Positions 5,024 to 57,985 of a stretch of DNA of 64,000 nucleotides are shown one piece after another. The DNA lies in NCBI GenBank assembly GCA_002753565.1, contig PEAM01000007.1:7389-71388 (forward strand), given 5' to 3'. Both the position numbers and the translations under genes were made by a program. Numbering within the stretch: the stretch's first letter is position 1; the number at the start of each line of letters is the position of its first letter. Under the pieces are notes generated by a model. It had not been told where the DNA came from. It searched no databases and saw nothing but the letters and a program-made list of their open reading frames with translations. This DNA is from Magnetococcales bacterium (GTDB lineage Bacteria; Pseudomonadota; Magnetococcia; Magnetococcales; JADFYX01).

Positions 5024-5284
5024 CACCACTCAACCCCTTTTATCATGGCAGATACCCTTGGAAAACAAAAAACAGTATACACAAATAAGTTATTGTTATT
5101 GCAGACTATCTAAGAATTCTAAAATCTATTCTTGCCTGACTCTTCCAATGCTGATACTGTTCGATTCAAACCGTGAGTAAACAGGTTTATTGGATAACGG
5201 AAACAGGACTCTTCCGTTAATATTTTCTTAAGAAACAGCCTTCATAGCTTTGAAGGGCTGTTACGACACACGTCAGTTGGTGGT

Positions 5285-5806: not shown

Positions 5807-5843
5807 AAAAGACTTGCTTTTAAACGGTTGAAGAAGATCTGTT

Positions 5844-7205
5844 ATGGATGATATTTTCCGCTTTCTCCAATCCGACCGTTCTCGTTGTCTGGACGATTTG
5901 ACCCGCTATTTAACCTTTGCCTCCATCTCCAGTGACCCCAACCGACAACCGGATATGGTGGCATGTGCCGACTTTACCGCTCTGCTGCTGGAGCAGGCCG
6001 GTCTGGATGCGGTCCAGGTTCACCCGACCAAGGGACACCCCATTGTTACCGCAAGTTGGAGAAAAGCCAAAGATCGGCCTACGGTTCTCATTTATGGACA
6101 CTATGATGTCCAGCCGGTAGACCCCCTCGCCCTTTGGGAACAGCCCCCCTTTTCACCCCATATTAAAAACGAACGGATTTTTGCCCGAGGTTCGGCAGAT
6201 GATAAAGGGCAGATCCTGATGCATATTCAGGCGGTCCGATCCATCTTGGCGACCCGTGGCGCTCTACCGGTTAATGTCTGTTTTATCATTGAGGGAGAGG
6301 AGGAGTTTGGTAGCGCCAATCTTCCCAACTTTCTTAAAAACCATCAAGACATGTTGCAGGCCGATGTCGCCCTGATTTCTGACTCCTCCATGTGGGATGA
6401 GGGGGTTCCTGCCATTACCACCTCCTTACGGGGTCTGCTCTTTCTGGAAATGACCCTGACCGGCCCCAATCGAGACCTCCATTCGGGCACCTTTGGCGGT
6501 GCCATCGCCAACCCACTGGAGGTGCTTGCCAAGATGCTGGCCTCGGTCAAAGATGACCAGGGAAGAGTAACCATACCCGGCTTCTATGATCGGGTTTTGC
6601 CCCCCTCTGAAGCGCTGAAAAAACAGCACAGAGACCTCCCTTTCAACCAAACCGCCTATCTGGACTCTCTGGGGCTCAAGGCCGGTTGGGGAGAGGCAGG
6701 CTATACCCTGCTGGAACAGCTTTGGCTGCGACCCACCTTTGAAATCAATGGGATGTGGGGAGGTTTTACGGAACCGGGAGCCAAAACCGTCCTCCCCTCT
6801 AAGGCCCATGCCAAGCTCTCTTTACGACTGGTTGGCGATCAAGAACCGGACGAAATGGAAGAGCTGGTCAGAGACTATTTTTATGCCCGTTTACCCGAGA
6901 CCGTCACCCTGACAATGGGTCGGGTAACAGGGGGAGGCCGCAGTGTCTCGGTTCCGGCGGACTTTCCAGCCCTTGCGGCAGCAAAAAAAGCGTTGACCGA
7001 AGCGTTCAACCAACCTCCTCTGCTGGTTGGCGAGGGGGCAACCATTCCGGTTGTGGCCGACTTGGAAAAACATCTCCACTTAACCACCCTGCTCATCGGC
7101 TTTGCACTGCCCGATGCCTGCCCCCACTCCCCCAACGAGAACCTGCACCTGCCCACTTTTCACACAGGAACCGAGAGTTTAGTCCGCTTACTCTTCCATC
7201 TGTAG
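5844..7205 (+). CDS. M20-family dipeptidase/acylase
   Basis: IYGHYDVQPVDP, ARGSADDKGQ, FIIEGEEEFGS (metal-binding H/D/E-E motifs of peptidase M20), 453 aa. Confidence 0.8.
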   Translation: MDDIFRFLQSDRSRCLDDLTRYLTFASISSDPNRQPDMVACADFTALLLEQAGLDAVQVHPTKGHPIVTASWRKAKDRPTVLIYGHYDVQPVDPLALWEQPPFSPHIKNERIFARGSADDKGQILMHIQAVRSILATRGALPVNVCFIIEGEEEFGSANLPNFLKNHQDMLQADVALISDSSMWDEGVPAITTSLRGLLFLEMTLTGPNRDLHSGTFGGAIANPLEVLAKMLASVKDDQGRVTIPGFYDRVLPPSEALKKQHRDLPFNQTAYLDSLGLKAGWGEAGYTLLEQLWLRPTFEINGMWGGFTEPGAKTVLPSKAHAKLSLRLVGDQEPDEMEELVRDYFYARLPETVTLTMGRVTGGGRSVSVPADFPALAAAKKALTEAFNQPPLLVGEGATIPVVADLEKHLHLTTLLIGFALPDACPHSPNENLHLPTFHTGTESLVRLLFHL

Positions 7206-7317: not shown

Positions 7318-7932
7318 ATGAAGATAAAACGCACCCCGGATGAGACCAGAGAGCTGCTGTTAGATGCCGCCTTTCATGAGATCTATTTCAATGGATTTCA
7401 AGGGGCCAGCCTGACCACTATTCTCGCCAAGACCAATCTGACCAAGGGGGCGTTATACCACCATTTTAAAAACAAAAAAGCTCTGGGTTATGCCGTTATC
7501 GATGAGTGCTTTCCCAAAAAGTTGGATCAAATATTCTTTCGACCCCTACGGGACGAAGACGATTTTTTTGCCGGGTATGAACGGGCTTTGTTGGAGTGCG
7601 ACCCAGAGTGGAAGAGAATGCTGGTACGGTACGGAAGTCCCGGTTTTAAACTGGCCCAGGAGATGTCTCACCTGGATGAAGGCTTTCAGAACCGTTTAGA
7701 CAGAATTTTCAAATGGTGGCGGGATGGCATTGCAGAGACCATCCGCTCGGCTCAGAAAAAAGGACAGATTAAAGCCGACATCATCCCCCAAGAACAAGCC
7801 TTTGTACTGCAATCTTTTTTGCTGGGGGGTTTAAGCCTTGCCAAAGTGGCCCAAGATCAAACCATGCTGACCCATACCACACAACTTTTTTTGAACTATC
7901 TAGAGACGTTACGAGCAACAGACGGAGTATGA
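7318..7932 (+). CDS. TetR/AcrR-family transcriptional regulator
   Basis: N-terminal HTH: RELLLDAAFHEIYFNGFQGASLTTILAKTNLTKGALYHHFKNKKAL. 204 aa. Its stop lies 2 nt before the exporter gene. Confidence 0.9.
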   Translation: MKIKRTPDETRELLLDAAFHEIYFNGFQGASLTTILAKTNLTKGALYHHFKNKKALGYAVIDECFPKKLDQIFFRPLRDEDDFFAGYERALLECDPEWKRMLVRYGSPGFKLAQEMSHLDEGFQNRLDRIFKWWRDGIAETIRSAQKKGQIKADIIPQEQAFVLQSFLLGGLSLAKVAQDQTMLTHTTQLFLNYLETLRATDGV

Positions 7933-20393: not shown

Positions 20394-22055
20394 TTATTGC
20401 TCTGGAATCAGTGTCGTCACAAATCCCTCTCTGGCAAAGCGCTTCTTGAAAGCCCGCTGGGCCTCTTGAGCGTCGGCTTTATCCTTAAAACGTCCCAGAC
20501 GAAGCAGATACCAGGTTTGGTTCTCTTTATCCACACGGGTTTGTGTAAACAGTTCAGCCCCTTTTTCTGCCCACTTGGCCCGAAATTTTTCTGCCCCCTC
20601 CTCACCCCGAAAAGCGGCAACCTGCACTGTCCAACGCGGTTTGACAAAAGAGACCACCGGATGCACAATCCCTGTATCGGTCACTATCGAGGGGGTGGTC
20701 GACTCTTCATGAGAGAGAGGTATGGGCAGCGCGTCAGAGGGGGATATTGGGGAGACCAGTTGAAACCCCTCCCCTTCGGGTGTCAGCTTACCGACCACCT
20801 TCAGGAGTTCAAACAGAGCCAGATTAACGGCAAACTGACTTTTAACCTGCTCGGTCTGAGTAGAAAACAGCTCATTTTGGGCATCGAGAAGATCCAGAGA
20901 GGTGCGTGAACCCACCTCGTACTCCTGGTCAACCCCCTCTTTAGCCTCTTTGGCGGCAGCAACCGCCGTTTTCAAGGCCTCATCAGAGGCTTTGGCACTC
21001 TGATATTTGGAAAGTACCTGCTTCAACTCCCGAACTGCCTTCTCTTGGAGTAGGTCCAGACCCGCCCGGCTGGCACTCTCATCCGACTGCGCCTGTTGAG
21101 TCTGTGCCGTTGTCAAACCACCGGAATAGAGAGGAAGGGAGGCCGAAACCGAAAGAGAGAAGCTATCCACCGGCCCCACCACAGAAGAGGAGGCCGGGTC
21201 CCAGGTTCGTGAACCGCTGGAGCTAAGAGAGAGGGTGGGATAGTGTCCGGCTTTTTTGGCCTGGACCCGAAAGGAGTCTGCCTCCAATCGATAGCGGGCC
21301 GCCTGGATATCGGGTCGGTTCTGGGCCAGAGGGGTCAGGATTGCCAGAGAGGCGTTGGGCAGCTGGCTTTGGACCAGAGGAACCTGCAGCCCTTCCGGCA
21401 CAGCTATTCCGGCTATCTCTTGAAATTGCGCCTCATTCACCTTGCCCTCTCCCACACGACGAATCCAATCGGCCTCGGCGGTTGCCACCCGTGCTCTGGC
21501 CTGGCTGACATCGGTTTTTGTCACCTCTCCAACAGAAAAACGGGCTTTGGTTGCCTCCAGATGGCGTTTGGTCACATCCAGATTGTTCTTGGCCAGAAGA
21601 GCCACTTCTCGCGCCTCCAACAAGGCTGTAGAAATCTGAATCAAGGAGAAATAGACCCCCTGACGAGCCGCTTCCAGATCCTGCTCAAAGGCCATGACCA
21701 ACGGCTCAACCCGTCTCATCTCCTCGAAGGCCTGCTGGTTGAATAGGGGCTGGCTTAAAGAGAGGCTCATGGTGGTGGGGTCATAATCTGAATTCCCCCC
21801 CTTCCATCGGCTCTCCTCGTAGGAGGAGCTCCAACCTAGAGAGAGGGTAGGCAGTATGGCGGATCGAGCTTGAGGGTAGAGGGTCAGAGCGGAGTCCAGG
21901 CGAGCCTGGGCCTGCTTGATCTGACCATTGGAAGCCAGGGCCTCTTGAACCGAACGAAAAAACGGCGATAAGGGTTTCTCAACCGCCCCCCCCTCTCCTG
22001 ATAGGGCAAACAGTCCCACCACCCCCGCAATTGTCAATAAGCCAGATCTATTCAT
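20394..22055 (-). CDS. TolC-family outer-membrane efflux factor with a C-terminal SPOR (peptidoglycan-binding) domain
   Basis: Signal peptide MNRSGLLTIAGVVGLFALS (ATG 22055; the track ORF starts at 22115). Two OEP-type repeats. The last ~75 aa, WTVQVAAFRGEEGAEKFRAKW...WYLLRLGRFKDKADAQEAQRAFKKRF, match the SPOR pattern. Confidence 0.85.
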   Translation of the reverse strand: MNRSGLLTIAGVVGLFALSGEGGAVEKPLSPFFRSVQEALASNGQIKQAQARLDSALTLYPQARSAILPTLSLGWSSSYEESRWKGGNSDYDPTTMSLSLSQPLFNQQAFEEMRRVEPLVMAFEQDLEAARQGVYFSLIQISTALLEAREVALLAKNNLDVTKRHLEATKARFSVGEVTKTDVSQARARVATAEADWIRRVGEGKVNEAQFQEIAGIAVPEGLQVPLVQSQLPNASLAILTPLAQNRPDIQAARYRLEADSFRVQAKKAGHYPTLSLSSSGSRTWDPASSSVVGPVDSFSLSVSASLPLYSGGLTTAQTQQAQSDESASRAGLDLLQEKAVRELKQVLSKYQSAKASDEALKTAVAAAKEAKEGVDQEYEVGSRTSLDLLDAQNELFSTQTEQVKSQFAVNLALFELLKVVGKLTPEGEGFQLVSPISPSDALPIPLSHEESTTPSIVTDTGIVHPVVSFVKPRWTVQVAAFRGEEGAEKFRAKWAEKGAELFTQTRVDKENQTWYLLRLGRFKDKADAQEAQRAFKKRFAREGFVTTLIPEQ

Positions 22056-22183
22056 GAAAGTCAGTCCACACCCATTTATAAGTTTCGTTAAGTTATTAAA
22101 CGTAGCACATCCCATTGCTGATAGGAATCCAACTCAACCCAAGCAAGCTAAAAAAATCCATCCCCTGGGTTAGAAGAGAGAGA

Positions 22184-42737: not shown

Positions 42738-43701
42738 ATCTTGTCTGAAGAGAGTCTGGGGGTGGATCACTCTGCAGGGATTCCAGGGGAGGCTCCAGAG
42801 AAACCGGTGGCTGTTCAACCGCTGGATTCAAATCTTTTTTTCTGGTTCCCAACAGCTTGCGGAGGCTTTTCCGGTAGCTCTTTTCGCCCCCGGCCCAATA
42901 CATCTCACGAGGATTGATAAAGCGAACCCAATCGTTCTCCTTAATCAGGGTGGCTCCCAACTTGGAGAGTCTGGCCTTGTTGTCGTTATTGATAAAGCGA
43001 ATACCGGGTACATCCAGCTTAAACTCAAAATCCTGCTGCACCAACATGTTGGGACGATGACCGTGGATAACGGTATCAATACCCAATTTTTTCAACATTT
43101 GACTGATCACCCTGCCATGGCTTTTGCCGTTGGACCCCTTGGAGCGATAGTAGGCCTGGGCCTGACGGATATCCCCCAAAATAGCCATCCCTTCTCGCTC
43201 CCTGAACAGGGCATACTTTCCCTCGTAATAGGCTTTGCGAAATCGATCGTTAAACGCATTCAGATCCACCGACTCCTCTTGAAGCTGGATAAGCAGGCGA
43301 AGAAGTTCAAAGGTAGGGTAGCCATGGATGAACAGATTGTTGGCATGGACATACATGATATCCTGATTGCGGATAAACTCAAGCTGGGCTTTGGAAAGCC
43401 CCATGGTGTTGCCATTGTCGGATTTTTGCAGGATGGCCAACTCATGGTTGCCATTCAGGATGACCATCTTGGCACTTTCGGGCAGCGTATCGCGCATGGT
43501 CTCAAACAGGGTAATGACCTCCTGCTTGGGGTGAGACTTGTTCAACCAATCCCCGGTGTGGACCAGTCGGAAATTATCCAGCCCCTTTTTCCATTTTCCA
43601 CTCTTACCGACCAACCCCAACATCCAGAGCGAATAATGGATGGATTTGATGTCATTATCGGTGTCAGAAAGAACCACGGTAAACCAAGAACCCATTGCCA
43701 A
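42727..43701 (-). CDS. Calcineurin-like metallophosphoesterase
   Basis: [28 protein letters not shown] motifs. 324 aa. The 3' end overlaps the uvrB start by 11 nt. Confidence 0.75.
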
Positions 43702-44124
43702 CCTTACATTCCTGTAAACAGGCTGAAAACACCCGCCTGTCCAATTAGTAAAACATCTTTTTTTTCAACAACCAACAGAGGCACAACCCTTGCCCAACTT
43801 GAAAAAGATTAACGTCCGCATCTCTGCAGGAAGATATATTAACAAAACTAAAGAAGAGAATCTAATTTTCTTGATCCAGGTTAACTGTCAATCGGCACAT
43901 CAATGGATTAACCTTCTGTTTTTATTGCAAGTTATATTTTCTCCTTTTAATAAAGAAGTGAGAAACAGGCCCCCCTGAGCCCTGACAGAGGGGGTTGTCA
44001 TCAACAAGGCTGAGGCTTAGACTGGACCACTCTATTCAGAAAAGGGGGCTAGAAAGGGATGGAGACAGTAACGATAACGGGATTACTGACATCTAAAAAC
44101 AGCCCCAAGCAGCAATATGGTTTA

Positions 44125-44141
44125 CGATAATTAAATTAACG
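44125..44141 (+). promoter_or_regulatory. 17-nt quasi-palindrome CGATAATTAAATTAACG, 18 nt upstream of the Rieske ATG
   Basis: Matches 16/17 the reverse complement of 46700-46716, which sits at the equivalent position upstream of the convergent aas-like gene. Pattern CGWTAA-N5-TTAWCG. Confidence 0.55.
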
Positions 44142-44159
44142 CAATACAAAGCAGCCTAA

Positions 44160-44561
44160 ATGAAGCCTACCCCAATGAAACCTTCTCCCCTCTCCTGGTC
44201 CGACCATCCCGCATCCCCAAGCACGGGAGAGGTTATCTGCGCTGTCTCCGGCCTGAAAGAACAGGGAGGGCAGGAGTTTACCTTCCATAAGGGTGAAGAG
44301 AGCTTCAGCCTGTTTGTTCTCAAGCACCAAGGCCATTTTTTTGCTTATGTTAACGGCTGCAAGCATTTTGTCGGCACCCCTCTCAACCCCAATAAAACAG
44401 GCGATTTTCTCCATCCCAACAATCCAGAACTCATTCGCTGCGGCGTCCATGGCGCTCTTTTTAAAATTGAGAGCGGAGAGTGTGTTTTGGGAGATTGCGA
44501 AGGGGAGTTTTTAGATCCGATCCCCCTCTCCATCGTGGCGGGAAATCTTGTCGTGGGCTAA
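44160..44561 (+). CDS. Rieske [2Fe-2S] domain protein
   Basis: 133 aa. CxH (NGCKHFVG) and CxxH (RCGVHGALF) cluster-binding boxes. Confidence 0.8.
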   Translation: MKPTPMKPSPLSWSDHPASPSTGEVICAVSGLKEQGGQEFTFHKGEESFSLFVLKHQGHFFAYVNGCKHFVGTPLNPNKTGDFLHPNNPELIRCGVHGALFKIESGECVLGDCEGEFLDPIPLSIVAGNLVVG

Positions 44562-46684
44562 GAGAGCTCAGCCAGCAGTTCCCGAACCTTTGGATAATCC
44601 ACCTTGCCACTCCCTTGAAGGGGAATCTCCTTCACAAAGAGTATCTGATCGGGGAGATGCAGTGGACTCAACCCAGCGGCTTTAATCTCTTCCAACAACC
44701 GAGGCCGGGTCGCCCCCCTCTCTTCACTGACCATACAGAGCCTCTCTCCTTTCTTGGGATGGGGGATTGCCTCGACAACATGGAGGGTGTCGGGCCATAC
44801 CGTTGCCGCACATCGCTCAACCGTTGCCAGAGAGATCATCTCTCCCCCCACCTTGGCAAAGCGTTTGATCCGACCGATTATCCGCAAAAAGCCCAGGGCA
44901 TCCACCCCCACTACATCCCCCGTATCATACCACGCCAGCCCCAAGGGGGTTTCGGGGCGTTGTACTTGACCACAACCATCAGGCTGCAGATAGCCTTTCA
45001 TGATGTTGGCCCCTCGCACCAACAGAACCCCCCCCGCCTCAACCCCCGGAACCGGCATCAGGTGATGATCGATTCCCGGCAGCAGACGACCAACCGTACC
45101 GGCTTGATAATGCAGAGCCGTATTGACAGCCAGAACCGGACTGCCTTCGGTGGTGCCGTAGCCTTCAAAAATACGAATGCCAAATTTTTCCATCCAGAGC
45201 GCTCTCGTCTCTGCCCTCAACGCCTCAGCCCCCGCCACAACCAGCCGAATGGAATGAAAATCCACCGGTGAGGCCATTCGTCCATAACCGGCCAGAAAGG
45301 TGTTGGTGCCAGCCAGCACCGTCGCTTTGATTCGATAAGCCAGTTCAGGAATGTTTCGATACTCCAACGGAGAGGGGTGGTAATGGCAACGAACCCCCGC
45401 CAAAAGAGGCGCCAGGGTTCCTACGGTTAAACCAAAGGCATGGAACATCGGCAGAACATTTAAAAAATGATCGTCAGCATGCAGGGTTATCCTGGTTCTT
45501 ATCTGGTGAATATTACAGAGAATATTATCATGAGAAAGCACAACTCCCTTAGGCTCCCCCTCCGACCCGGAGGTAAACAGGATAACCGCCTCCTGATCAG
45601 GTTGGGCAGCCACTGTTTTCAACCTCCGTTCTGGCCACAGCGCAGAGACCAGGCCGACCACCTTTTGCACAGGGCCAATTTCAGGCCGCAGATCCTCCAG
45701 ATAAAGAACCGTAACCTCCTTGGCCAACGACGCCACTTTATCGACAAACCCCCCTTTTTTGACAAACAGCCGAGAGGTTAAAACGGTCTGAATTCCAGCC
45801 GTCCGGCACGCACTGATCAACGTGCGAGAACTGCTGGTAAAGTTGAGTAAGGCGGGAGTTCTGCCAATGGCGTGCAGAGCCAAAAAGGTGACAACACCAC
45901 CGGCAGAGGTCGGCAAAAAAACTCCGACTCTCTCCTTGGGTTTGCTGCGCCTGACAAGAGCCTCCCCAAGCAGGATGGCGCGCAAAACAGCCCCTCGATA
46001 GCTCAACGTGACACCGGTAGAATCGGTGATGATCTCGGTAGCAAAGCCGTGAATACGTGCCACTCGACACACCGCCCCCCACAGGGTTCCCTGCCCTTGG
46101 AAATGGGCCACCAAAGCCCGCCCCAACAGATCGGGCAACAGCACCCCCGTCACATCCGGCGGCAAGAGCGAGAGCGTAACTTTGGGGAAAAGATGGCGGG
46201 GAAGAGAGGCTTCCCGGCTGGAGCTGGGGTGATATTGGGTACCATTAAGGTGGGCAGCGATCACCGGAATACCCGCCTCTCTGGCAGCCCGGCAGGACCC
46301 TTCATCCATTTTGGCAAAAGAGCCGTTTTCCGTCGGTACACTTTCTGGTAAATGCAGCGCCACCCCGCCCCGCTTCCAGTGATTCAGGAGGGAGCTCCAC
46401 CCTTCCTGCTGCAAGGATTCCGCCTCCATAAAGTGAATACTGGGAAAAAACCACCGCTGCAGCGGAGCAGGAAGCCGCTCTTTGGACACAATCAGCCAAC
46501 TTTTTTCTGTCAACAAACTGGCTAAAATCATCCCATCGATGGCTGCCTGATGGTTGCAAACCACCAAACAGCCGCCCTGATCCCCTGTCAAAGGGGCTCC
46601 ACCTCGGCAAACCAGACGAAAAACCTGCCTGATTATCCACCGAACCGCTTTTTCCCTGAGAGCCATGTTACTCCTGAAAGTCAT
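44558..46684 (-). CDS. Bifunctional acyltransferase / acyl-AMP ligase (Aas-like: lysophospholipid acyltransferase + acyl-ACP synthetase)
   Basis: 708 aa. N-terminal HX4D motif NHQAAIDG (PlsC-type). C-terminal AMP-binding signature FTSGSEGEPKGVV, YGTTEG, WYDTGD. Architecture and length resemble E. coli Aas. Confidence 0.85.
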   Translation of the reverse strand: MTFRSNMALREKAVRWIIRQVFRLVCRGGAPLTGDQGGCLVVCNHQAAIDGMILASLLTEKSWLIVSKERLPAPLQRWFFPSIHFMEAESLQQEGWSSLLNHWKRGGVALHLPESVPTENGSFAKMDEGSCRAAREAGIPVIAAHLNGTQYHPSSSREASLPRHLFPKVTLSLLPPDVTGVLLPDLLGRALVAHFQGQGTLWGAVCRVARIHGFATEIITDSTGVTLSYRGAVLRAILLGEALVRRSKPKERVGVFLPTSAGGVVTFLALHAIGRTPALLNFTSSSRTLISACRTAGIQTVLTSRLFVKKGGFVDKVASLAKEVTVLYLEDLRPEIGPVQKVVGLVSALWPERRLKTVAAQPDQEAVILFTSGSEGEPKGVVLSHDNILCNIHQIRTRITLHADDHFLNVLPMFHAFGLTVGTLAPLLAGVRCHYHPSPLEYRNIPELAYRIKATVLAGTNTFLAGYGRMASPVDFHSIRLVVAGAEALRAETRALWMEKFGIRIFEGYGTTEGSPVLAVNTALHYQAGTVGRLLPGIDHHLMPVPGVEAGGVLLVRGANIMKGYLQPDGCGQVQRPETPLGLAWYDTGDVVGVDALGFLRIIGRIKRFAKVGGEMISLATVERCAATVWPDTLHVVEAIPHPKKGERLCMVSEERGATRPRLLEEIKAAGLSPLHLPDQILFVKEIPLQGSGKVDYPKVRELLAELS

Positions 46685-46699
46685 CTGGTTTATAAGTTA

Positions 46700-46716
46700 C
46701 GTTAATTTAGTTATCG
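46700..46716 (-). promoter_or_regulatory. 17-nt quasi-palindrome (minus-strand reading CGATAACTAAATTAACG), 15 nt upstream of the aas-like ATG
   Basis: Plus-strand sequence CGTTAATTTAGTTATCG. See the partner at 44125-44141. Confidence 0.55.
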
Positions 46717-46990
46717 TTAATTAACAACTGTCTATTATCAATCAGTTAAGCTTAACTAACAATAAGGAGATCCATTCAGATAAATCTGACAATTTTCCGC
46801 TCTTTTCCTCACACAAAACAGGCTGTCATAATATTTTTTAACTCACTTTACAAATAAAGCACGATTATTGCTTTCGATAATAATGAGGCCGTTAATGAAT
46901 CCAACGAATCTTTTGCTTATGAGCCTGTTTACTCTCTTTTTGAACCATTTTTATTGAATTAAAGCAACCATTAAACGGGGGAGATTAAGA

Positions 46991-47248
46991 ATGAATGCAA
47001 CGGAAGAATCCTGGAGCAACATCCATGCGGCACCCGAACAGATGCTCTGGTCTGCCGTACTGGAGACAGCGCTGTCGAACGCCCTTACCCACCGTGACCC
47101 AGAGGAGAAACGACGGGCCATCAAATGGTTTGAAGAGGGTGGACAACATTTTAAAATGGTTTGCGATCTGGCTAACTATGAGCCAAGCTTTGTGCAAAAA
47201 AGGGTGCTGGATCTTATCGAAACCACCCACGCCAACAGTCTGAACTAA
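46991..47248 (+). CDS. Small hypothetical protein (85 aa)
   Basis: Strong RBS (GGGGGAG 7 nt upstream of the ATG), helical-looking sequence, 30 nt upstream of the oxoprolinase gene. No family recognised. Confidence 0.5.
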   Translation: MNATEESWSNIHAAPEQMLWSAVLETALSNALTHRDPEEKRRAIKWFEEGGQHFKMVCDLANYEPSFVQKRVLDLIETTHANSLN

Positions 47249-47277
47249 ACCAACCGTTACAGCAAACCGGCCTTTCA

Positions 47278-50200
47278 ATGTGCACAGAGCCCAAGCCAAC
47301 TCATTCTGCATCCCACCGTGGTGGTTGGCGGTTTGCTGTTGATCGGGGGGGAACCTTTACCGATGTGGTCGCCATCGACCCGACGGGAGCCTACCATGGT
47401 GCCAAACTACTCTCTCAGTCTCAGCAGTATGATGATGCTGCCATTGAGGGTATCCGCCGCTTTTTAGGCAGCCCGACCAACCGGCCCCTCCCCCACGAAC
47501 AGGTTGCCTGGATTCGCCTGGGAACAACCGTCGCAACCAACGCGCTATTAGAACGCAAAGGGGCGCCGGTAGGGCTCTTTATCACTCAAGGTTTTCAGGA
47601 TCTTCTGGATATTGGCAGTCAACACAGGCCAGACCTTTTTGCGTTGGCTGTTCGCCGTCCCGAGAAACTCTATCAGGCGGTGGCAGAGTGTGAAGAGCGT
47701 ATGGGGGTGGACGGTCTGCCGCTGCGCTCCCCCACCCACGCCCAAACCAGAGCCGCACTCATCGAGCTTAAACAGTCTGGCGTCGAGTCGTTAGCCATTG
47801 TTTTTCTCCATGCCTGGAAAAATCCCCGCCATGAACTCTACGCAGCCGAAATAGCCAAAGAGTTTGGCTTTAAACAGATCTCTCTCTCCCATCAAACCCT
47901 CCCCCTCATCCAAATGGTCGGACGAGGCAGGACCACCTTGCTGGACGCCTATCTGACTCCCGTTTTACGGCACTATAGTCAGCAGGTAAGGCGCTGGACG
48001 GGGCAGATCCCTCTGCATTTCATGAGCAGCACCGGAGGGTTGATGGTCCCGGAGGGGTTTACCGGCAAGGATGCCATTCTATCCGGGCCTGCGGGGGGCG
48101 TGACCGGTGTGGCGGCTGTTGCCAACCAGTGTGGCGCAGCACAGGTGATCGGCTTTGATATGGGCGGCACCTCAACGGATGTCTGTCGTTATGATGGCAC
48201 CTTTGAACGGGTCATGGAGGCGGAGACAGCCGGTATTCACTATCAGGCTCCCATGCTGAATGTGGAGACGGTTGCGGCGGGCGGCGGGTCTATTCTCTAC
48301 TTTGACGGCCAAAAACTCTCTGTCGGACCCGACTCAGCCGGGTCCGATCCCGGTCCAGCCTGTTATGGGCTTGGGGGTCCGGCCACCATCACCGATGCCA
48401 ATCTGATTTTGGGGCGGATAGTGGCCGACTATTTCCCCAAACTCTTTGGTGCCGACCGCCATCAACCGTTAGACATCCAGGCCGCCAGATTGAGAATGGC
48501 TGAACTGCTCACTCGCGTCAACAGCCAGACCAAACAACACCTCAGCCTGGAGTCCCTGGCTTTGGGGTTTGTTCGCATTGCCAATGAAGCCATGGGACGC
48601 CCCATTAAAAACCTCTCTGTAGCGCGGGGTTTCGACTTGCGAAACCACGCGCTGATCTGCTTTGGCGGGGCCGGAGGACAACATGGGTGTGGTATCGCCA
48701 GCGGATTGGCCATTAATACACTCCACCTCCACCCTTTATCAGGGCTGCTTTCAGCTTTTGGCATCGCCCAGGCCACCCACAGCCTGACCCATGTCGAGAC
48801 ACTTCTAACCCCCCTGAACTCGACCACCCTGGCCCAGACAAACCGTCAGGGCAGAGCCGTCGCTAGGGGACTGACCTCTCGTCTTCGAGAGGAGTCAGCA
48901 GCGCCGGATGATACTGTTTTCAGCCAACACCTCTCTCTGGATATCCGCCTGGCTGGTACGGATAGCTCCTTAACCATAGACTATGATTCCAACCTGGGTC
49001 GGCTTACAGAACGTTTTAATCAACAACACCGCCAACACTATGGGTTTTCACCCTCCTCCTCTTCTCTGGAGATTCTGAATCTTCGGGTGGAGGTGACCCA
49101 ACAACCAGAGGATCATCTCCCCGTCAATTTATCTCTTAAAAAAGCGCTGAAGGGAGAGCATAAAGCGGAGAGAATGACCCCGGTCTGGTTTACCAGCAGT
49201 GGGGCCACCCAAACACCGCTCTATCTCAGAGAGAGGTTGATCCCAGGCCGAGAACTAACAGGCCCCGCCCTGATTGCCGAACCCCACGCCATCACCGTTG
49301 TCGAACCGGGGTTTGTGGCTCATCGCTCTGACGATGGCCTTTTGACCCTGGAGCGAAAAGAGAGCCACACCGAGCAGGTGGACTCACAACGGGATCCTGT
49401 TTTGCTGGAGCTGTTCAACCACCGTTTTTCTGGCCTTGCCGCCCGAATGGGAGAGACGCTGGCTCGTACCTCCCACTCCGTCAACATGAAAGAAAGGCTG
49501 GACTTCTCTTGCGCTCTCTTCGATGCCAAAGGTCGTCTGGTTGCCAATGCTCCCCATGTTCCGGTCCATCTGGGGGCCATGGGGGCCACTGTCTGCGCCC
49601 TGATAAACAGCCGGGCAGAGAGTATGGAGCCAGGGGATGTCTATCTCTCCAACGATCCCAACCAGGGAGGATCCCACCTTCCTGATTTAACCGTCATCAC
49701 ACCGGTTTTCAGAAAAAACAGACTGGCTTTTTTTGTCGCTGCCCGAGGTCACCATGCCGATATTGGCGGTATTGTCCCTGGCTCCATGCCCCCTTTCGCC
49801 CGACTCTTGGCAGAAGAAGGGGTTGTTTTATCCAATGAATTATTGGTTAAAAAAGGGCTTTTTCTAGAAGAGGCCATTGTCCACACCCTGAGCCGCCCCC
49901 CCTACCCAGCCCGCAATATTCCTGAACGCCTCTCCGATCTCAAAGCCATGGTAGCAGCTGGAGCGCGGGGTGTTCGGGAGTTGGATGGTCTGTGCAACCT
50001 CTATGGAGATGAGGTGATCTCAAGCTATATGGGCTACATGCGAGACAATGCCACCCATGCCATGGAGGGGGTATTGAGCGATCTGCTCAGAGGAAGAGAA
50101 GTATGGTCCTGCCATTTTGAAGACCATATGGATGAGGGAGAAACCCTGGCTGTCACCATCACCATTAGCCAAAAAAAAGGCGGGCGACCTAAGGCCCTCC

Positions 50201-50961
50201 TCGACTTTAGCGGCACCTCTCCCCCCCACCAAGGCAACCTGAATGCGCCAACTGCCATCACCCGCGCTGCCGTCTTATATGTTTTTAGAACCCTGATTAA
50301 AAAAGAGATCCCTCTTAATGATGGCTGCCTGACCCCGCTCTCCATCCATATTCCCCCCAACTGCCTGCTCAACCCTCCCAAGCAGAGTGCTGTATCGGGC
50401 GGAAATGTCGAAACATCCCAAAGAATTGTCGATGTTCTCTATGGTGCCCTGGGGGTAGCGGCGGCCTCTCAGGGAACCATGAACAACTTTTTGTTTGGCA
50501 ACCCAGACGGCACCGGCAGCCAATATTATGAGACCATTGCAGGGGGGGCCGGGGCGACCCATGGCTTTGATGGGGCCTCTGGCGTTCAGGTCCACATGAC
50601 CAACACCCGGATTACCGACCCCGAACTGCTGGAACATCGCTTTCCTCAAATCAGGCTGGAACAGTTCTCCCTAAGGAGAGGCTCGGGGGGAGATGGAAAG
50701 TGGCGAGGGGGGGATGGGGTCATACGGCGGTTTCTTTTTTTAGCCCCTCTCACCCTTACCCTGCTTTCACAAAGACGGACCATTCCACCCTACGGTTGCC
50801 AGGGTGGAGAGCCGGGAGCCAAAGGAGAAAACCTCTTTTGGCCCTCGGGAACCACACAGCCCCAACCTCTTCCTGGTCGTTTTCAACAGACCGTCCAGGC
50901 TGGAGACAGGCTGGAGATCCGAACACCGGGGGGGGGAGGGTTTGGAGTCAAAGAGAGCTAA
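47278..50961 (+). CDS. 5-oxoprolinase (ATP-hydrolysing), fused hydantoinase A/B type
   Basis: 1227 aa. FAVDRGGTFTDVVAI and IGFDMGGTSTDV (hydantoinase A/actin-like ATPase), followed by a hydantoinase B-type C-terminal half (DPNQGGSHLPD, GGFG). Confidence 0.9.
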   Translation: MCTEPKPTHSASHRGGWRFAVDRGGTFTDVVAIDPTGAYHGAKLLSQSQQYDDAAIEGIRRFLGSPTNRPLPHEQVAWIRLGTTVATNALLERKGAPVGLFITQGFQDLLDIGSQHRPDLFALAVRRPEKLYQAVAECEERMGVDGLPLRSPTHAQTRAALIELKQSGVESLAIVFLHAWKNPRHELYAAEIAKEFGFKQISLSHQTLPLIQMVGRGRTTLLDAYLTPVLRHYSQQVRRWTGQIPLHFMSSTGGLMVPEGFTGKDAILSGPAGGVTGVAAVANQCGAAQVIGFDMGGTSTDVCRYDGTFERVMEAETAGIHYQAPMLNVETVAAGGGSILYFDGQKLSVGPDSAGSDPGPACYGLGGPATITDANLILGRIVADYFPKLFGADRHQPLDIQAARLRMAELLTRVNSQTKQHLSLESLALGFVRIANEAMGRPIKNLSVARGFDLRNHALICFGGAGGQHGCGIASGLAINTLHLHPLSGLLSAFGIAQATHSLTHVETLLTPLNSTTLAQTNRQGRAVARGLTSRLREESAAPDDTVFSQHLSLDIRLAGTDSSLTIDYDSNLGRLTERFNQQHRQHYGFSPSSSSLEILNLRVEVTQQPEDHLPVNLSLKKALKGEHKAERMTPVWFTSSGATQTPLYLRERLIPGRELTGPALIAEPHAITVVEPGFVAHRSDDGLLTLERKESHTEQVDSQRDPVLLELFNHRFSGLAARMGETLARTSHSVNMKERLDFSCALFDAKGRLVANAPHVPVHLGAMGATVCALINSRAESMEPGDVYLSNDPNQGGSHLPDLTVITPVFRKNRLAFFVAARGHHADIGGIVPGSMPPFARLLAEEGVVLSNELLVKKGLFLEEAIVHTLSRPPYPARNIPERLSDLKAMVAAGARGVRELDGLCNLYGDEVISSYMGYMRDNATHAMEGVLSDLLRGREVWSCHFEDHMDEGETLAVTITISQKKGGRPKALLDFSGTSPPHQGNLNAPTAITRAAVLYVFRTLIKKEIPLNDGCLTPLSIHIPPNCLLNPPKQSAVSGGNVETSQRIVDVLYGALGVAAASQGTMNNFLFGNPDGTGSQYYETIAGGAGATHGFDGASGVQVHMTNTRITDPELLEHRFPQIRLEQFSLRRGSGGDGKWRGGDGVIRRFLFLAPLTLTLLSQRRTIPPYGCQGGEPGAKGENLFWPSGTTQPQPLPGRFQQTVQAGDRLEIRTPGGGGFGVKES

Positions 50962-53294
50962 GCCGATGAAGGGATGTCAACCAGGGAGCTCTTCTCGAAA
51001 CGCTTTTGAAAAAGGGGCAGCAGTTCGTCAGAAGGCAAGGGTTTGCTAAAAAAGAACCCCTGGACAGAGTGACAGTTGTTACCCTCTAAGAAACCAAGCT
51101 GTTTTTTAGTCTCTACACCTTCTGCAACCACATTGAGTTTTAGGCTTTTTGCCATGGAAATAACCGCCTCAACAATGGCATCATCTTCTGGATCACACGT
51201 GAGATCTTGAACAAAAGAGCGGTCAATTTTCAGGGTGGTCACCGGAAAGCGTTTAAGATGGTTGAGAGAGGAGAAGCCGGTACCAAAATCATCAATGGCC
51301 AAGGTCACACCCAAAGCACGCAGTTTATTCATGATATCGATGGCCTCTTCCACGTCGCCCATCACCATGCTTTCTGTAATTTCCAACTCCAGAAAGGCCG
51401 GTTGAATCTGGCTCTCCTCAACAATTTTTTTCACCATCTCAACAAAGTTAGGCTCCATAAACTGCCGAGCCGAAAGATTGACCGCAATCTGAACAGGGGT
51501 CGCCAACACTTTGGCCCAACGCACACCCTGTTCACAAGCCTCCGTTAAAACCCACTCCCCCATGGGTACAATCAGCCCTGTCTCTTCCGCAAGGGGGATA
51601 AACTCTGCCGGCCCCATTACCCCCTCCCCGTTTCGGTTCCACCGAACCAACGCCTCCACACCAAACACAGCCCCACTTCCTACATCCACTTTGGGCTGAT
51701 AGTAAAGGCTCAACCTATTGGCCTCGATGGCCTGTTTCAGATCTTGCTCCAGAGCGACCCGGTTGGAGATTAAAGTCTGCAACTCTTTGGAAAATGAGCG
51801 GAAAGTATTCCGTCCCGCCTCTTTGGCCTGATACATGGCAATATCAGCATGTTTACAGAGCACCTCCTGGTCCTGTCCATCATCCGGGTAGAGGGTAATA
51901 CCGATACTTGCCCCTACCTGGGCCTCACCAGCTTTCAAGAAAACCGGCTCTCCTACCCGTTTAATCAAGGTTTGAGCCAGATGGCCCACCTCTTCCGAGT
52001 TGCTGATTTCGGTTAAGATGATGGCAAACTCATCCCCACCCAAACGGGCAACCGTATCCGTACCACGAACACTGGCCTGCATTCTCTGGGCAATAACACA
52101 GAGCAGCTCATCCCCTGCCGCGTGACCAAAGGTGTCGTTGACCTGTTTAAACCGGTCCAGATCGATGAACATAATAGAAAACTTGCTGCCTCTTCGAGAG
52201 GCTGTGGCGATGGCGGCCAAAATGTGTTCGTTAAAAAGGGCACGGTTGGCAAGCTGGGTGAGCTGATCATAGAATGCCAAGGATTTCAGTTTGCTGTTGA
52301 TCGCCTTCTGTTCACTGATGTCGGTAAAAACCCCCACATAGTTTTCATGCTTACCCTGGGCATTTTTGATGACGCTGATGGTGAGCCATTTAGGAAAAAC
52401 CGTTCCATCTTTCTTTCGGTCCCAAATCTCCCCCTCCCAACAACCATGAAGGGATAGCTCCTGCCACATGGCCTCGTAGAACTTTTTATCATGTCGACCG
52501 GATTGTGCTATGTTTGGGTTTTTTCCCAGCACCTCCGCCCGACTGAATCCGGTTAGCTGCTCATACGCCGGGTTGATATCCAGGATTTTTGCCTCGGTGT
52601 TGGTAATAACAATGGCCTCACTGACACTCTCCATCGCCTTTTGGGTCAACTCCAATCGATGGAGCAGCGGTTTGGTAATCCGAAGAAAGAGAAAAACCCC
52701 CAGCCCAATGGCAACCATGCCGACAAGAAAAACAATAGCCGCCGCCCGGATAAAAGGGGCACGAATTTCTTGGATATCGATCTTTGCCACCACACCCAGA
52801 TCGAGAATAGCTACCGGCTCATAAGCCGCCAATACCGTAGCCCCTCGATAGTCCAACCCCACCACCGTACCGGACCGACCCGACAAGGCCCGGCGCATCG
52901 GCTCGGCCAGTTTGGCAGAAAAAGGCACCGGATTGGGCTCAGCCATTTTGGAATGCCGATGGCTTAAGACAAAGTCGATCAGCTCCCCCCTACGTTTGGC
53001 CAGTGTATACTCACCGGTCTTACCGAACCCCTCAAAATATTGATGGGCATCCTTGATTTGTGCGATAGACGCGCCCAAAAAACCCTCTTTATGAGTGGTT
53101 TGGTTATGAATTGAATTGAATCGTGCAACCGCTTCCATCAGCCTGGCTCGGCTCTTGACGGTATCAACCAAGCGGGCTTTTTCCTCTTGAAAGGCGGTTT
53201 GGTAGAGGATGGCCACAGCGATGCCACCAACAAGAACAACCAGTAGCGCCATAATGATCACAAGGAGCCAAGGTTGGTATCTATTTTTGTCCAT
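50958..53294 (-). CDS. Membrane sensor diguanylate cyclase/phosphodiesterase (Cache-like periplasmic domain, PAS, GGDEF, EAL)
   Basis: Two TM helices flank a ~170-aa loop. RLGGDEFAIIL (GGDEF), EALVRW, DDFGTGFSSL (EAL). Confidence 0.9.
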   Translation of the reverse strand: MDKNRYQPWLLVIIMALLVVLVGGIAVAILYQTAFQEEKARLVDTVKSRARLMEAVARFNSIHNQTTHKEGFLGASIAQIKDAHQYFEGFGKTGEYTLAKRRGELIDFVLSHRHSKMAEPNPVPFSAKLAEPMRRALSGRSGTVVGLDYRGATVLAAYEPVAILDLGVVAKIDIQEIRAPFIRAAAIVFLVGMVAIGLGVFLFLRITKPLLHRLELTQKAMESVSEAIVITNTEAKILDINPAYEQLTGFSRAEVLGKNPNIAQSGRHDKKFYEAMWQELSLHGCWEGEIWDRKKDGTVFPKWLTISVIKNAQGKHENYVGVFTDISEQKAINSKLKSLAFYDQLTQLANRALFNEHILAAIATASRRGSKFSIMFIDLDRFKQVNDTFGHAAGDELLCVIAQRMQASVRGTDTVARLGGDEFAIILTEISNSEEVGHLAQTLIKRVGEPVFLKAGEAQVGASIGITLYPDDGQDQEVLCKHADIAMYQAKEAGRNTFRSFSKELQTLISNRVALEQDLKQAIEANRLSLYYQPKVDVGSGAVFGVEALVRWNRNGEGVMGPAEFIPLAEETGLIVPMGEWVLTEACEQGVRWAKVLATPVQIAVNLSARQFMEPNFVEMVKKIVEESQIQPAFLELEITESMVMGDVEEAIDIMNKLRALGVTLAIDDFGTGFSSLNHLKRFPVTTLKIDRSFVQDLTCDPEDDAIVEAVISMAKSLKLNVVAEGVETKKQLGFLEGNNCHSVQGFFFSKPLPSDELLPLFQKRFEKSSLVDIPSSA

Positions 53295-55305: not shown

Positions 55306-55683
55306 TTCATACTCCATCCTAACATTGACGGGCAACGCCCGAGGGGCAACTCTTTTGGTTTTTGTTGGGGAACCCTATCACCTTTTCCTTTTGGCCTCAA
55401 CATTGCAATCCACTCACTTCGTTGGTCGGGTTTTCTGGAAGCTGAACGAAACTATACAGAAATAAATCTAACAGAGAACGGCATTCTCAGAAAACCTGAC
55501 CAATGACTTTTTTTCATTTTTTAATGAACAGATCAGATCGCATCAAGGATTTCAACCAGTTTGATGCTTTTGTATATTAAGAAAACAATGGGATGGAAGA
55601 CTAATTTTAGTACAGGGCTTCCGATAGAGTAATGAGTAGAACATCTCTACTATATTACGTTATTTATATTAATAATAGTAAAA

Positions 55684-56535
55684 ATGGAGTATTTCATGGG
55701 TGCTTTTCCCTCCCCCCCTTCCGAGATCAACGATCTGCCACCACAAGTCCAAGCCTATGCTCAGGCTGCCGCCCTGGCGGATAATACACGGGCTGCCTAC
55801 TGGGGGGATCTACGGCGTTTTGTCGAGTGGGGTGGAGAGGTTCCTGCTTCCTCGAAAATGGTCGCGTCCTATCTGGTTGCCCATGCCAACTCCCACAAAT
55901 ATGCCACACTGGCTCGCTGGAAGGTCTCCATCGGAAAATCCCACACAGCCCAGGGACTGCCCGACCCCACCAAAACCGAGTTGGTTCATGCGGTGCTTAA
56001 AGGGATTAAGCAAAAACATGGACAAGATCAACGTCAGGTTGCCCCCCTGACCAAAGAGAAAATTATCGCCATGGTCTCCAACATGGGAGAGCGCCTGAAG
56101 GATAAGCGGGACAAAGCACTGATTTTAGTGGGATTTGCAGGAGGACTGCGCCGCTCTGATTTAATCTCTCTAGAGCGTGAAAACCTCTCTGAACGGGAAG
56201 AGGGCTGGGAGATTGTTCTGCCTAAAAGCCAAGTCGCCATCCCCACTGCCAGCGGTTCTGTTTGTGCCGTCAAGGCACTGAAAGAGTGGTTGGATGTGTC
56301 TGAAATCAATGAAGGGGCCGTGTTTCAAGGGATCAATCGCCACGGAAAACGTTCCGGCAAACCCCTCACCGGTCATGGCGTGGCGCTGATCGTCAAGGAG
56401 CGGGTGCAATCTATTGGCCTGGACCCAGCCCATTACAGTGGATTCAGCTTAAGAGCAGGGTTGATCTCCAGCGCGGCCGATCAGGGAATCTCTCTTCGAC
56501 ACGCCACCTCACTCAATGGACATGGTGTCCTTTAA
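55684..56535 (+). CDS. Tyrosine recombinase/phage-integrase family protein, C-terminally truncated (probably non-catalytic remnant)
   Basis: N-terminal SAM-like core-binding region (TRAAYWGDLRRFVEW). Catalytic Arg box LVGFAGGLRRSDL. The HxxR box reads GFSLRAG. The ORF ends ...SLNGHGVL* before the expected Tyr. The likely start is ATG 55696 (GGAG 6 nt upstream). Confidence 0.7.
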   Translation: MEYFMGAFPSPPSEINDLPPQVQAYAQAAALADNTRAAYWGDLRRFVEWGGEVPASSKMVASYLVAHANSHKYATLARWKVSIGKSHTAQGLPDPTKTELVHAVLKGIKQKHGQDQRQVAPLTKEKIIAMVSNMGERLKDKRDKALILVGFAGGLRRSDLISLERENLSEREEGWEIVLPKSQVAIPTASGSVCAVKALKEWLDVSEINEGAVFQGINRHGKRSGKPLTGHGVALIVKERVQSIGLDPAHYSGFSLRAGLISSAADQGISLRHATSLNGHGVL

Positions 56536-56539
56536 TTTT

Positions 56540-56556
56540 CGTTAAGTAAGTTAACG
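56540..56556. promoter_or_regulatory. Perfect-armed 6-5-6 palindrome CGTTAAGTAAGTTAACG (third copy of the CGWTAA-N5-TTAWCG motif)
   Basis: 5 nt after the integrase stop and 80 nt upstream of the ampG ATG. 14/17 identical to the motif copies at 44125 and 46700. Confidence 0.45.
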
Positions 56557-56587
56557 TCAGGTATTACCGTTACCTGACGTTAACTTA
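56547..56587 (+). terminator. 17-bp perfect-stem hairpin, probable intrinsic terminator
   Basis: TAAGTTAACGTCAGGTA (56547-56563), loop TTACCGT, TACCTGACGTTAACTTA (56571-56587), followed by TCCCCCCTTTTAT. Confidence 0.55.
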
Positions 56588-56635
56588 TCCCCCCTTTTAT
56601 CCGCAAGCCAACACCTCCCCCTCCGACAGGTCATT

Positions 56636-57985
56636 ATGGATCAAACGGGCATCAACCGTTGGCTAGGCTCCCTGTCCCTCTACAGAGAACCTCGTCTGAT
56701 CGCTATTCTGTTTCTGGGATTTTCCAGCGGCCTCCCCCTGGCCCTGACCTTTGGCACCTTGACACTCTGGCTGGCTGAATCGGGTATCAGCAAAACCTCC
56801 ATCGGCCTCTTTGCCTTGGCTGGGGCACCCTACACCTTTAAGTTTCTCTGGGCGCCACTGATAGACCGCCTCCCCCTGCCTTTTCTCACGGGGCGGTTTG
56901 GACGTCGTCGAGGTTGGATGCTGCTGACCCAGGTCGCCTTGATGATCTCTATTCTTGGCTTGGGGTGGTCCAACCCACAACAGGCCCCCTTCACCACCGC
57001 CCTCTTCGCCCTGCTGACCGCTTTTTGGTCGGCAAGCCAAGATATTGTCATCGATGCCTACCGGGTTGAAATTCTCGAGGAACACCAGTATGGGGCTGGA
57101 GCCGCCATGGTGGTTTTGGGCTATCGGCTGGGTATGCTGGTCTCTGGTGCGGGTGCGCTCTACCTGGCCACCTTCCTGGGGTGGCACTGGACCTATGCGA
57201 TCATGTCGGCCACACTGGGTATTGGGGTTATCACGGTACTGCTCAACCCAGAACCGGCACAACAAGAGAGCGCAGCCTCTCAACAGCAAGAGGCCAGACT
57301 GCAAACCTATCTGCAAAATCGCCCTTGGTTGAGGGGATGGCGTGGAAAAGGGGTCGCTTGGTTTTCAGGAGCGGTTATCGCCCCCTTTTCTGAGTTTATG
57401 ACCCGGCGTGGCTGGCTGCTTATTCTGTTGTTTATCCTGCTCTATAAGTTTGGCGATGCCCTGGCGGGGGTGATGAGCAACCCTTTTTATGTGGAGTTGG
57501 GGTTTTCTAAAATCGAGATTGCCAACGTCAGCAAGCTCTTTGGTCTGGCTACCCTGATTATTGGCAGTTTTATGGGGGGCGCACTGGTCAGCCGGGTGGG
57601 GATCATGAAGGGGTTGTTGTGGTGTGGCCTGCTGCAGATGGTATCCAACCTGATGTTTGTCTGGCTGGCCCACACCGGTTATGACATGACAGCGCTGACA
57701 CTGACCATTGCCATAGAAAACCTCAGTAGTGGTATGGGCATGGCGGCGTTTGTCTCCTATCTTTCGGCTTTGTGTAATGTCGCCTACACCGCCACACAAT
57801 ATGCCCTGCTCTCTTCCCTGATGGCCTTTGGTCGCACCCTGCTCTCCTCGTCAGGTGGCTGGTTTGCCGACCAGATGAGTTGGGGGGCTTTTTTCTTGTT
57901 GACCACGGCAGCCGCCCTGCCGGGCCTGCTGTTGCTGCTCTGGATGATCCGTCGTTTTCCCCTTCAAAAAGAGCCTCTGCGCTAG
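56636..57985 (+). CDS. ampG: AmpG-family MFS muropeptide permease
   Basis: 449 aa, ~12 TM. N-terminal family pattern FLGFSSGLPLALTFGTLTLWLAESGISKTSIGLFALAGAPYTFKFLWAPLIDR. Confidence 0.85.
   Translation: MDQTGINRWLGSLSLYREPRLIAILFLGFSSGLPLALTFGTLTLWLAESGISKTSIGLFALAGAPYTFKFLWAPLIDRLPLPFLTGRFGRRRGWMLLTQVALMISILGLGWSNPQQAPFTTALFALLTAFWSASQDIVIDAYRVEILEEHQYGAGAAMVVLGYRLGMLVSGAGALYLATFLGWHWTYAIMSATLGIGVITVLLNPEPAQQESAASQQQEARLQTYLQNRPWLRGWRGKGVAWFSGAVIAPFSEFMTRRGWLLILLFILLYKFGDALAGVMSNPFYVELGFSKIEIANVSKLFGLATLIIGSFMGGALVSRVGIMKGLLWCGLLQMVSNLMFVWLAHTGYDMTALTLTIAIENLSSGMGMAAFVSYLSALCNVAYTATQYALLSSLMAFGRTLLSSSGGWFADQMSWGAFFLLTTAAALPGLLLLLWMIRRFPLQKEPLR

Follow-up and report, generated by a model that had tools for sequence, protein, structure and literature searches.

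A recurring 17-bp dyad ahead of four genes of a Magnetococcales bacterium: a candidate promoter-embedded operator

The window analysed here is a stretch of 64,000 nucleotides from an uncultured magnetotactic bacterium, a member of the Magnetococcales (GenBank assembly GCA_002753565.1, contig PEAM01000007.1, positions 7,389 to 71,388 of the forward strand). It carries four copies of a 17-bp dyad, each facing a gene: one for a small Rieske [2Fe-2S] protein, one for an Aas-like enzyme, one for an AmpG-family transporter and one for a TolC-like outer-membrane efflux protein (OEP). The dyad is non-random, and it stands at four genes rather than at the two, Rieske and aas, where an earlier sequence-only reading of this DNA had noticed it. 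On balance, and with moderate confidence, we take it to be a promoter-embedded operator for a dimeric DNA-binding regulator.

Four copies of a 17-bp dyad

Copy 1 (CGATAATTAAATTAACG, 44125-44141, plus strand) lies 18 nt ahead of the Rieske ATG at 44160 and 33 nt ahead of an alternative ATG at 44175. Copy 2 (CGATAACTAAATTAACG on the minus strand, 46700-46716) lies 33 nt ahead of the annotated aas ATG at 46666 and 15 nt ahead of an in-frame ATG at 46684. Copy 3 (CGTTAAGTAAGTTAACG, 56540-56556, plus strand) begins 4 nt past the stop codon of a tyrosine-recombinase-like open reading frame (ORF), with 79 nt left to the ampG ATG (56636), and copy 4 (CGTTTAATAACTTAACG on the minus strand, 22086-22102) sits in the spacer between acrB and the OEP gene, 30 nt from the ATG at 22055. 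The gene-oriented consensus of the four is CGWTWA-nTAAn-TTAACG: two half-sites of 6 bp each, CGWTAA and TTAACG, 11 bp apart from centre to centre, flank an asymmetric centre, nTAAn, that has the same polarity in 4/4 copies. The pattern CGWTAA-N5-TTAWCG is exact in three copies, and copy 4 departs from it by one half-site mismatch. All four stand in non-coding DNA and face their genes, 18-79 nt ahead of the start codons.

Copies 1 and 2 are identical at 16 of 17 positions, and direct reading of the window confirms their positions as given in the sequence-only reading, and likewise the spacings stated there, 18 nt before ATG 44160 and 15 nt before ATG 46684. Together they extend to a 24-nt inverted repeat (21/24, 88% complementary), the longest in the 3.65 kb scanned (43650-47300); its left arm (TTTACGATAATTAAATTAACGCAA, 44121-44144, plus strand) contains a -35-like TTTACG and its right arm (TTAACGATAACTAAATTAACGTAA on the minus strand, 46697-46720) a -35-like TTAACG. 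The two copies had also been said to occupy the same position before both genes, and this holds, at 33 nt each, when the count is made from ATG 46666 and ATG 44175. What changes is the aas start itself: the deposited annotation, the alignment of orthologue N-termini and an AGGAG Shine-Dalgarno sequence all point to ATG 46666, six codons downstream of the 46684 used earlier. Orthologues of the Rieske protein start about 3 residues ahead of a conserved WSD motif, and ATG 44175 is a possible start for the Rieske gene. At the fourth site the longest OEP ORF begins at 22115, and a typical signal peptide (MNRSGLLTIAG...) begins at ATG 22055; the latter is the likely true start, so that copy 4 falls in the acrB-OEP spacer.

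Other details of the earlier description have to be dropped. A TGGTTTA heptamer was thought to flank both copies; its second occurrence lies at 46686-46692 and not at 46687-46693, the heptamer is at background in the window (8 found against 6.7 expected), and in the aas orientation it is part of the -10-like TATAAACCA and not of any flank common to both copies. The supposed weaker relatives of the dyad score far below the true copies in a position weight matrix (PWM) built from the four sites: 8.8 bits at 46890-46906 and less than 6.8 bits at 44072-44088, against 25.8-28.3 bits. Random sequence rich in AT does as well as these two.

Chance in AT-rich DNA is ruled out by shuffles of the whole window and by a Markov model of intergenic DNA. 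The window contains CGWTAA-N5-TTAWCG 3 times, compared with 0.00 for 100 shuffles, and a search with the three-site consensus at up to 2 mismatches returns 4 sites against 0.03 expected, the addition being 22086-22102 on the minus strand. Under a second-order Markov model trained on AT-rich intergenic DNA only, 0.001 palindromes and 0.012 near-consensus sites are expected, compared with the 3 and 4 observed. There are 70 half-sites in the window, and of the spacings checked (0-30) they pair at 5 only. Twelve of the 17 intergenic half-sites fall within three intergenic regions, and equally AT-rich spacers hold none or one. The PWM gives copies 1 to 4 scores of 28.3, 28.2, 27.1 and 25.8 bits, against at most 12.9 bits elsewhere in the window, and recovers each of the four sites in a leave-one-out test. 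Within the window the motif is far above background, with every copy non-coding and just upstream of a gene.

Outside the source genome the picture is one of background. The best PWM score across 990 kb of loci from other genomes is 14.0 bits. In relative L082 the aas orthologue contains a near-palindrome, TGTTGAATAAATTAACA (6008-6024), at its codons 3-8; at 13.5 bits it is level with the best background matches. In public metagenome contigs a scan with the 17-mer returned at least 120 stretches with one match apiece; the 80 of these that were read have a median GC content of 39%, and the downstream hexamer described below is present in 1 of the 80. These matches are background and form no family.

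Beyond the dyad, the leaders of aas and OEP share about 40 nt, AACTTATAAA and TGACTTTCA (46667-46699 and 22056-22085, both on the minus strand; p=0.002 against shuffles in local alignment). This similarity suggests that the aas and OEP upstream modules are of common ancestry. For all other pairs of flanks the similarity is no higher than in shuffles.

The operator reading and the points that weigh against it

Downstream of each copy there is a -10-like hexamer, to which we assign a putative promoter role: TACAAA at 44145-44150 (plus strand), 3 nt past copy 1; TATAAA at 46689-46694 (minus strand), 5 nt past copy 2; TATTAC at 56562-56567 (plus strand), 5 nt past copy 3; and TATAAA at 22075-22080 (minus strand), 5 nt past copy 4. 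The combination TTAACG-N5-TAYWAM was found 3 times against 0.03 expected. At the other end, the dyad's left edge runs into a -35-like TTWACG (TTTACG, TTAACG, TTTTCG; it is poor in OEP). If the hexamers are taken at face value, TTWACG-N20-TAYWAM can be read at aas and ampG and weakly at OEP, and the Rieske copy has N18.

With TAYWAM as the -10 element, the dyad would span about -34 to -18. The centres of the half-sites are 11 bp apart, which puts both half-sites on one face of the helix; such an arrangement would suit a dimeric helix-turn-helix protein controlling access of RNA polymerase at all four promoters. Control could take the form of simple occlusion by a repressor or of a MerR-type switch, with the protein acting from between the -35 and -10 elements. 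The second mode fits because the -35-like TTWACG overlaps the edge of the dyad and the spacer, at 20 bp in 3/4 copies, would be over-long. The putative regulon would comprise the Rieske protein, Aas (lysophospholipid reacylation), AmpG (muropeptide import) and the TolC-like channel with its SPOR domain. These functions suggest a role in envelope maintenance or stress, through repair of membrane lipids, recycling of peptidoglycan and efflux. A shared operator had already been proposed for the Rieske and aas genes; recurrence, non-coding position, orientation and the downstream hexamer make it the best reading of the element, although not one specific to this pair, as ampG and the TolC-like gene have it too.

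A number of observations weigh against an operator, and we gather them here. Pfam and NCBIfam scans of the window ORFs turned up no cognate regulator gene. The -35/-10 assignments are guesses from consensus, with the OEP -35 poor, and a promoter scanner that allows 16-18-nt spacers only called none of these pairs. The source-genome DNA examined amounts to 72 kb, the window plus 8 kb past its 5' end, and those 8 kb hold no further copy. Copy 3, finally, is entangled with a hairpin. Its right half is the base of an 18-bp stem at 56546-56588 (plus strand; -29.3 kcal/mol, z -5.45), terminator-like and 3' of the recombinase-like ORF. Relative L089 has the homologous hairpin, in which compensatory changes and a T-run are seen, and on these grounds we take the hairpin to be the terminator of the recombinase-like gene; being conserved, it could account for half of copy 3.

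A further adverse point is conservation. The relatives available for comparison are distant, with protein identities of 58-65% for aas, 59% for Rieske and 78% for AmpG. No dyad was found upstream of aas in L089, L082, L001 or 77 other aas loci (80 in total), nor upstream of the Rieske orthologues in L084 and L086 (59% identity). The ampG spacer of L082 has only a degenerate look-alike, CGTTAACTGTAGTTAAAG, whose own spacer is 1 nt longer, and that of L089 has none. The leader and the terminator hairpin of the recombinase-like gene are, by comparison, recognisably conserved at the same distance. Since the dyad is missing in these relatives while leader and hairpin persist, the motif is lineage-specific. 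At the distances available it is thus not conserved in orthologous intergenic regions, an outcome that the sequence-only reading had named as counting against its proposal, and this lowers, without removing, our confidence in a regulatory function, which stays moderate.

A TetR gene (7318-7932) is the window's sole transcription factor gene. We considered it as the regulator and rejected it: its own upstream region has no half-sites. Among the scanned window ORFs, none has a MerR-family domain.

Alternative explanations

The strongest competitor, which we nevertheless consider unlikely, is promoter reuse: a promoter module of about 20-55 nt, or a relic mini-repeat, would have been copied within the genome, and the similarity of the copies would reflect common descent with no dedicated regulator. 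Promoter reuse is documented in prokaryotes (PMC3575422), and several features here agree with it. The motif is lineage-specific and not found in relatives; the aas and OEP leaders share their additional similarity of about 40 nt downstream of the 17-mer (p=0.002); and the Rieske gene is new at its locus, yet has a near-identical copy (21/24). Outside the aas/OEP pair, however, the flanks are no better than shuffles. The conserved part comprises dyad and hexamer only, the pattern expected under selection on function, and this counts against mere copying. Neither is there a larger repeat unit, nor terminal repeats, a target duplication or a transposase. Promoter reuse does not conflict with an operator, provided that the operator is part of the module that was copied.

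That the Rieske gene is the newcomer follows from gene order in the relatives. The position of aas is ancestral: it lies beside the gene for an 85-aa protein in four relatives (L001, L082, L089 and a JGI contig), and where the flank is visible, in L001 and the JGI contig, metallophosphatase and uvrB genes are near it. At the site of the Rieske gene the relatives have a metallophosphatase gene of 399-419 aa in the same place and orientation, and the Rieske orthologues (59% identity) sit in unrelated contexts. Judged by this synteny, only the Rieske gene is new at the locus. The 458-nt spacer upstream of it holds no detectable remnant of the displaced metallophosphatase gene.

Less probable still, and in our view decidedly so, is an alternative sigma factor for which the dyad itself would be an oriented promoter and not an operator. 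The strict orientation relative to the genes, the asymmetric centre (TAA) and the fixed spacing to the downstream hexamer are all consistent with a promoter, as are the envelope-related target genes. Such targets are typical of extracytoplasmic function (ECF) sigma regulons. The dyad symmetry and the 5-nt spacing of the half-sites are, on the other hand, unlike any -35/-10 pair. We compared the element by reading with sigma-factor consensus sequences: for sigma-28 (TAAA-N15-GCCGATAA) there is no TAAA at the right distance; the SigmaE-type pattern (GGAACTT-N16-TCAAA) has a spacing that fits aas only and not OEP, Rieske or ampG; and for EcfG (GGAAC-N16-17-CGTT) the CGTT is on the wrong strand.

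Two further explanations are, in our view, each very improbable. In the first, the 24-nt copies would be recombination sites that flip the 2.55-kb Rieske-aas segment and so swap the promoters outside it. The 21/24 inverted repeat does bracket exactly the two genes, ending just ahead of both start codons, and the third copy lies 4 nt past a tyrosine-recombinase-like ORF. Yet neither the OEP copy nor the ampG copy has a partner, and both face their genes just as the others do; the Rieske and aas copies are inverted because the genes are convergent. The half-site spacer is 5 nt, against the 6-8 nt of tyrosine recombinase core sites, and the only recombinase-like ORF within 10 kb has no catalytic Tyr. 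The -10-like hexamers, if real, lie inside the segment, and its inversion would carry the promoters along.

The recombinase-like ORF itself lies at 55684-56535 (plus strand) in the window, at 2525-3364 (minus strand) in L082 and at 5017-5856 (plus strand) in L089, encodes 283 or 279 aa and always adjoins ampG. Its product ends about 25 residues early, without the catalytic Tyr, and in box II HxLRH is changed to FSLRA. Between the genomes the protein is 95-96% identical while the third codon positions are only 47-50% identical; other proteins of the same genomes, neighbours included, are 48-88% identical. It has the look of a recombinase that was domesticated, lost its catalysis and is now under extreme purifying selection. 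Its leader and promoter (TTACGTTATTTAWATTAATAAWAGT..AATGGAGT) are conserved as well, at 55650-55683 in the window, at 3365-3410 (minus strand) in L082 and at 4975-5016 in L089.

The second explanation makes the dyads targets of this protein, which would either regulate genes by sequence-specific DNA binding or help to invert the 2.55-kb Rieske-aas segment. The position of copy 3, 4 nt past the stop codon of the gene, speaks for it, and so does a degenerate relative of the dyad, CGTTATTTATATTAATA, held by the conserved leader at 55658-55674. Against it stand the relatives, where the protein is almost the same yet the positions orthologous to those at aas and ampG lack the motif.

A mobile two-gene cassette, with the repeat as its terminal inverted repeats, is less credible again, and synteny leads us to reject it. 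The sequence-only reading had offered a cassette footprint as its alternative, and inverted repeats do flank a two-gene block. However, aas is ancestral at the locus in four relatives and only the Rieske gene is new, replacing the metallophosphatase gene; the flanks, TTTA and TTAA, form no target duplication; the block contains no transposase; and the element occurs singly at two other genes. An RNA leader in the 5' untranslated region, also suggested earlier on account of the short distance to the start codons, can be set aside with similar assurance: copies 1 and 2 form no stable structure (-2.4 and -9 kcal/mol), shuffled sequences folding as well or better (z +1.75 and +0.39); Rfam yields nothing even at E<=1; and with TAYWAM as the -10 the element would not be transcribed.

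The wider locus and known systems

Around the first two copies the genes run uvrB (minus), metallophosphatase (minus), Rieske (plus), aas-like (minus) and the 85-aa ORF (plus), followed by hydantoinase/oxoprolinase (plus), GGDEF-EAL (minus), M23 peptidase (minus), YjbQ (plus), the tyrosine-recombinase-like ORF (plus) and ampG (plus). The Rieske gene (44160-44561, plus strand), lineage-specific at the locus, encodes 133 aa, or 128 aa from ATG 44175. The aas-like gene (44558-46666, minus strand) encodes a bifunctional protein of 702 aa, acyl-ACP--phospholipid O-acyltransferase / acyl-ACP synthetase (ACP, acyl carrier protein). Their stop codons are convergent and overlap by 4 nt (44558-44561) with no terminator between them, so that, if both promoters fire, the transcripts collide and have complementary 3' ends. 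The ampG gene (56636-57985, plus strand) was assigned to the AmpG-family muropeptide transporters of the major facilitator superfamily (MFS) by domain and family scans. The OEP gene (20394-22055, minus strand) lies downstream of HlyD and AcrB genes; its product combines two OEP repeats with a C-terminal SPOR peptidoglycan-binding domain, an unusual fusion.

The 85-aa ORF (46991-47248, plus strand) is always divergent from aas and belongs to a small Magnetococcales clade only (11 proteins, 61-69% identical). Its AlphaFold model is all-helical, with a predicted local distance difference test (pLDDT) score of 82, and the protein has no match in Pfam, NCBIfam or the PDB (fold search at E<=0.001). 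We considered this divergent neighbour of aas, too, as the regulator and rejected it: it has no DNA-binding fold match, is all-helical and is restricted to its clade. The interval 47278-53294, which separates the 85-aa gene from that for the M23 peptidase, is taken up by the 1227-aa hydantoinase/oxoprolinase fusion and by a PAS-GGDEF-EAL gene. In its place there is nothing in L082, and in L089 and the JGI contig no more than a small cNMP-binding (cyclic nucleotide-binding) gene; by this comparison the interval is apparently a lineage-specific insertion or replacement. Some 6-8 kb beyond the 5' end of the window, the contig end (L088, 159-2320) carries a fragment of a DDE_3 transposase together with a phage-type integrase of full length (353 aa), and may mark the border of a mobile element.

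Should the dyad prove to be a true operator, Aas, AmpG, a SPOR-bearing efflux channel and the small Rieske protein would together form a small regulon, specific to the lineage of this uncultured magnetotactic bacterium. The Rieske protein would thereby gain a context in envelope maintenance or stress, and the dyad could be used as bait in a search for the regulator. The newly placed Rieske gene carries the same putative promoter-operator module as the residents, either acquired at the locus or brought along. The practical value is modest, motifs of this sort being frequent and the organism uncultured.

Several known elements were compared with the dyad and set aside. Integron attC sites are imperfect palindromes of 57-141 bp with RYYYAAC...GTTRRRY cores, located 3' of cassettes and adjoined by an IntI integrase. 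Here only copy 3 has a GTTRRRY-like sequence, GTTAAGT, with no inverse core; the elements are 5' of genes; and the neighbouring recombinase-like protein is Tyr-less. Compared by eye with consensus sequences, the dyad has the wrong spacing for CtrA (TTAA-N7-TTAAC) and too short a spacer for dif/Xer, and none of the Fur, HexR, ModE and SoxR boxes fits. Invertons (fimS, hin and the Bacteroides type) resemble the present case in that inverted repeats bracket a segment with a recombinase-family gene within about 10 kb. They differ from it in that this segment has 2.55 kb and two whole genes, the repeat is unpaired elsewhere and the recombinase-like protein lacks the nucleophile.

Reported reused or mobile promoters (PMC3575422) share with the dyad the occurrence of near-identical short upstream sequences before unrelated genes, one of which, Rieske, is newly placed. 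Those sequences, however, run to tens to hundreds of nt at high identity, whereas here 17-24 nt are shared, or about 55 nt with a gap for aas/OEP. Like LexA, Fur and TetR-type boxes, the dyad is a near-palindrome in the range of 15-20 bp that overlaps the core promoter at several unlinked genes; unlike the dyad, which was not found in relatives, those boxes are kept across related species along with their regulators.

Helix-turn-helix dimers can read half-sites of the TAAC(G) type, as in the GraA operator AAATTAACGAATAACGTTAAG of Pseudomonas putida (PMC6393540). This Xre/HigA-type operator is likewise AT-rich and has TTAACG/CGTTAA half-sites 5 nt apart, and AAATTAACG is literally present in copies 1 and 2. 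Its half-sites, however, are everted (TTAACG-N5-CGTTAA) around a central TAACGTTA, whereas those of the dyad are inverted (CGWTAA-N5-TTAACG), and GraA autoregulates a toxin-antitoxin operon, whereas the dyad stands at four unrelated genes with no toxin-antitoxin locus nearby. We read the likeness to GraA as a resemblance and not as membership.

The putative layout comes close to that of the MerR promoter-operators (merT, soxS, copA, zntA, bmr): as in those, the dyad would lie between -35-like and -10-like hexamers and overlap the 3' end of the -35, and the spacer would be over-long, at 20 bp in 3/4 copies. Some MerR-family members target efflux components, MFS transporters and redox proteins. 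In MerR-type regulation the protein acts from a site between the -35 and the -10 of a promoter whose spacer has 19 bp (PMC6524683). The dyad differs in that its sequence is unrelated to known MerR, SoxR and CueR boxes, its hexamers are weak and putative, its Rieske copy has an 18-bp spacer and the window holds no merR-family gene. Set beside these systems, the dyad most probably represents an operator/promoter module that belongs to a known general type.

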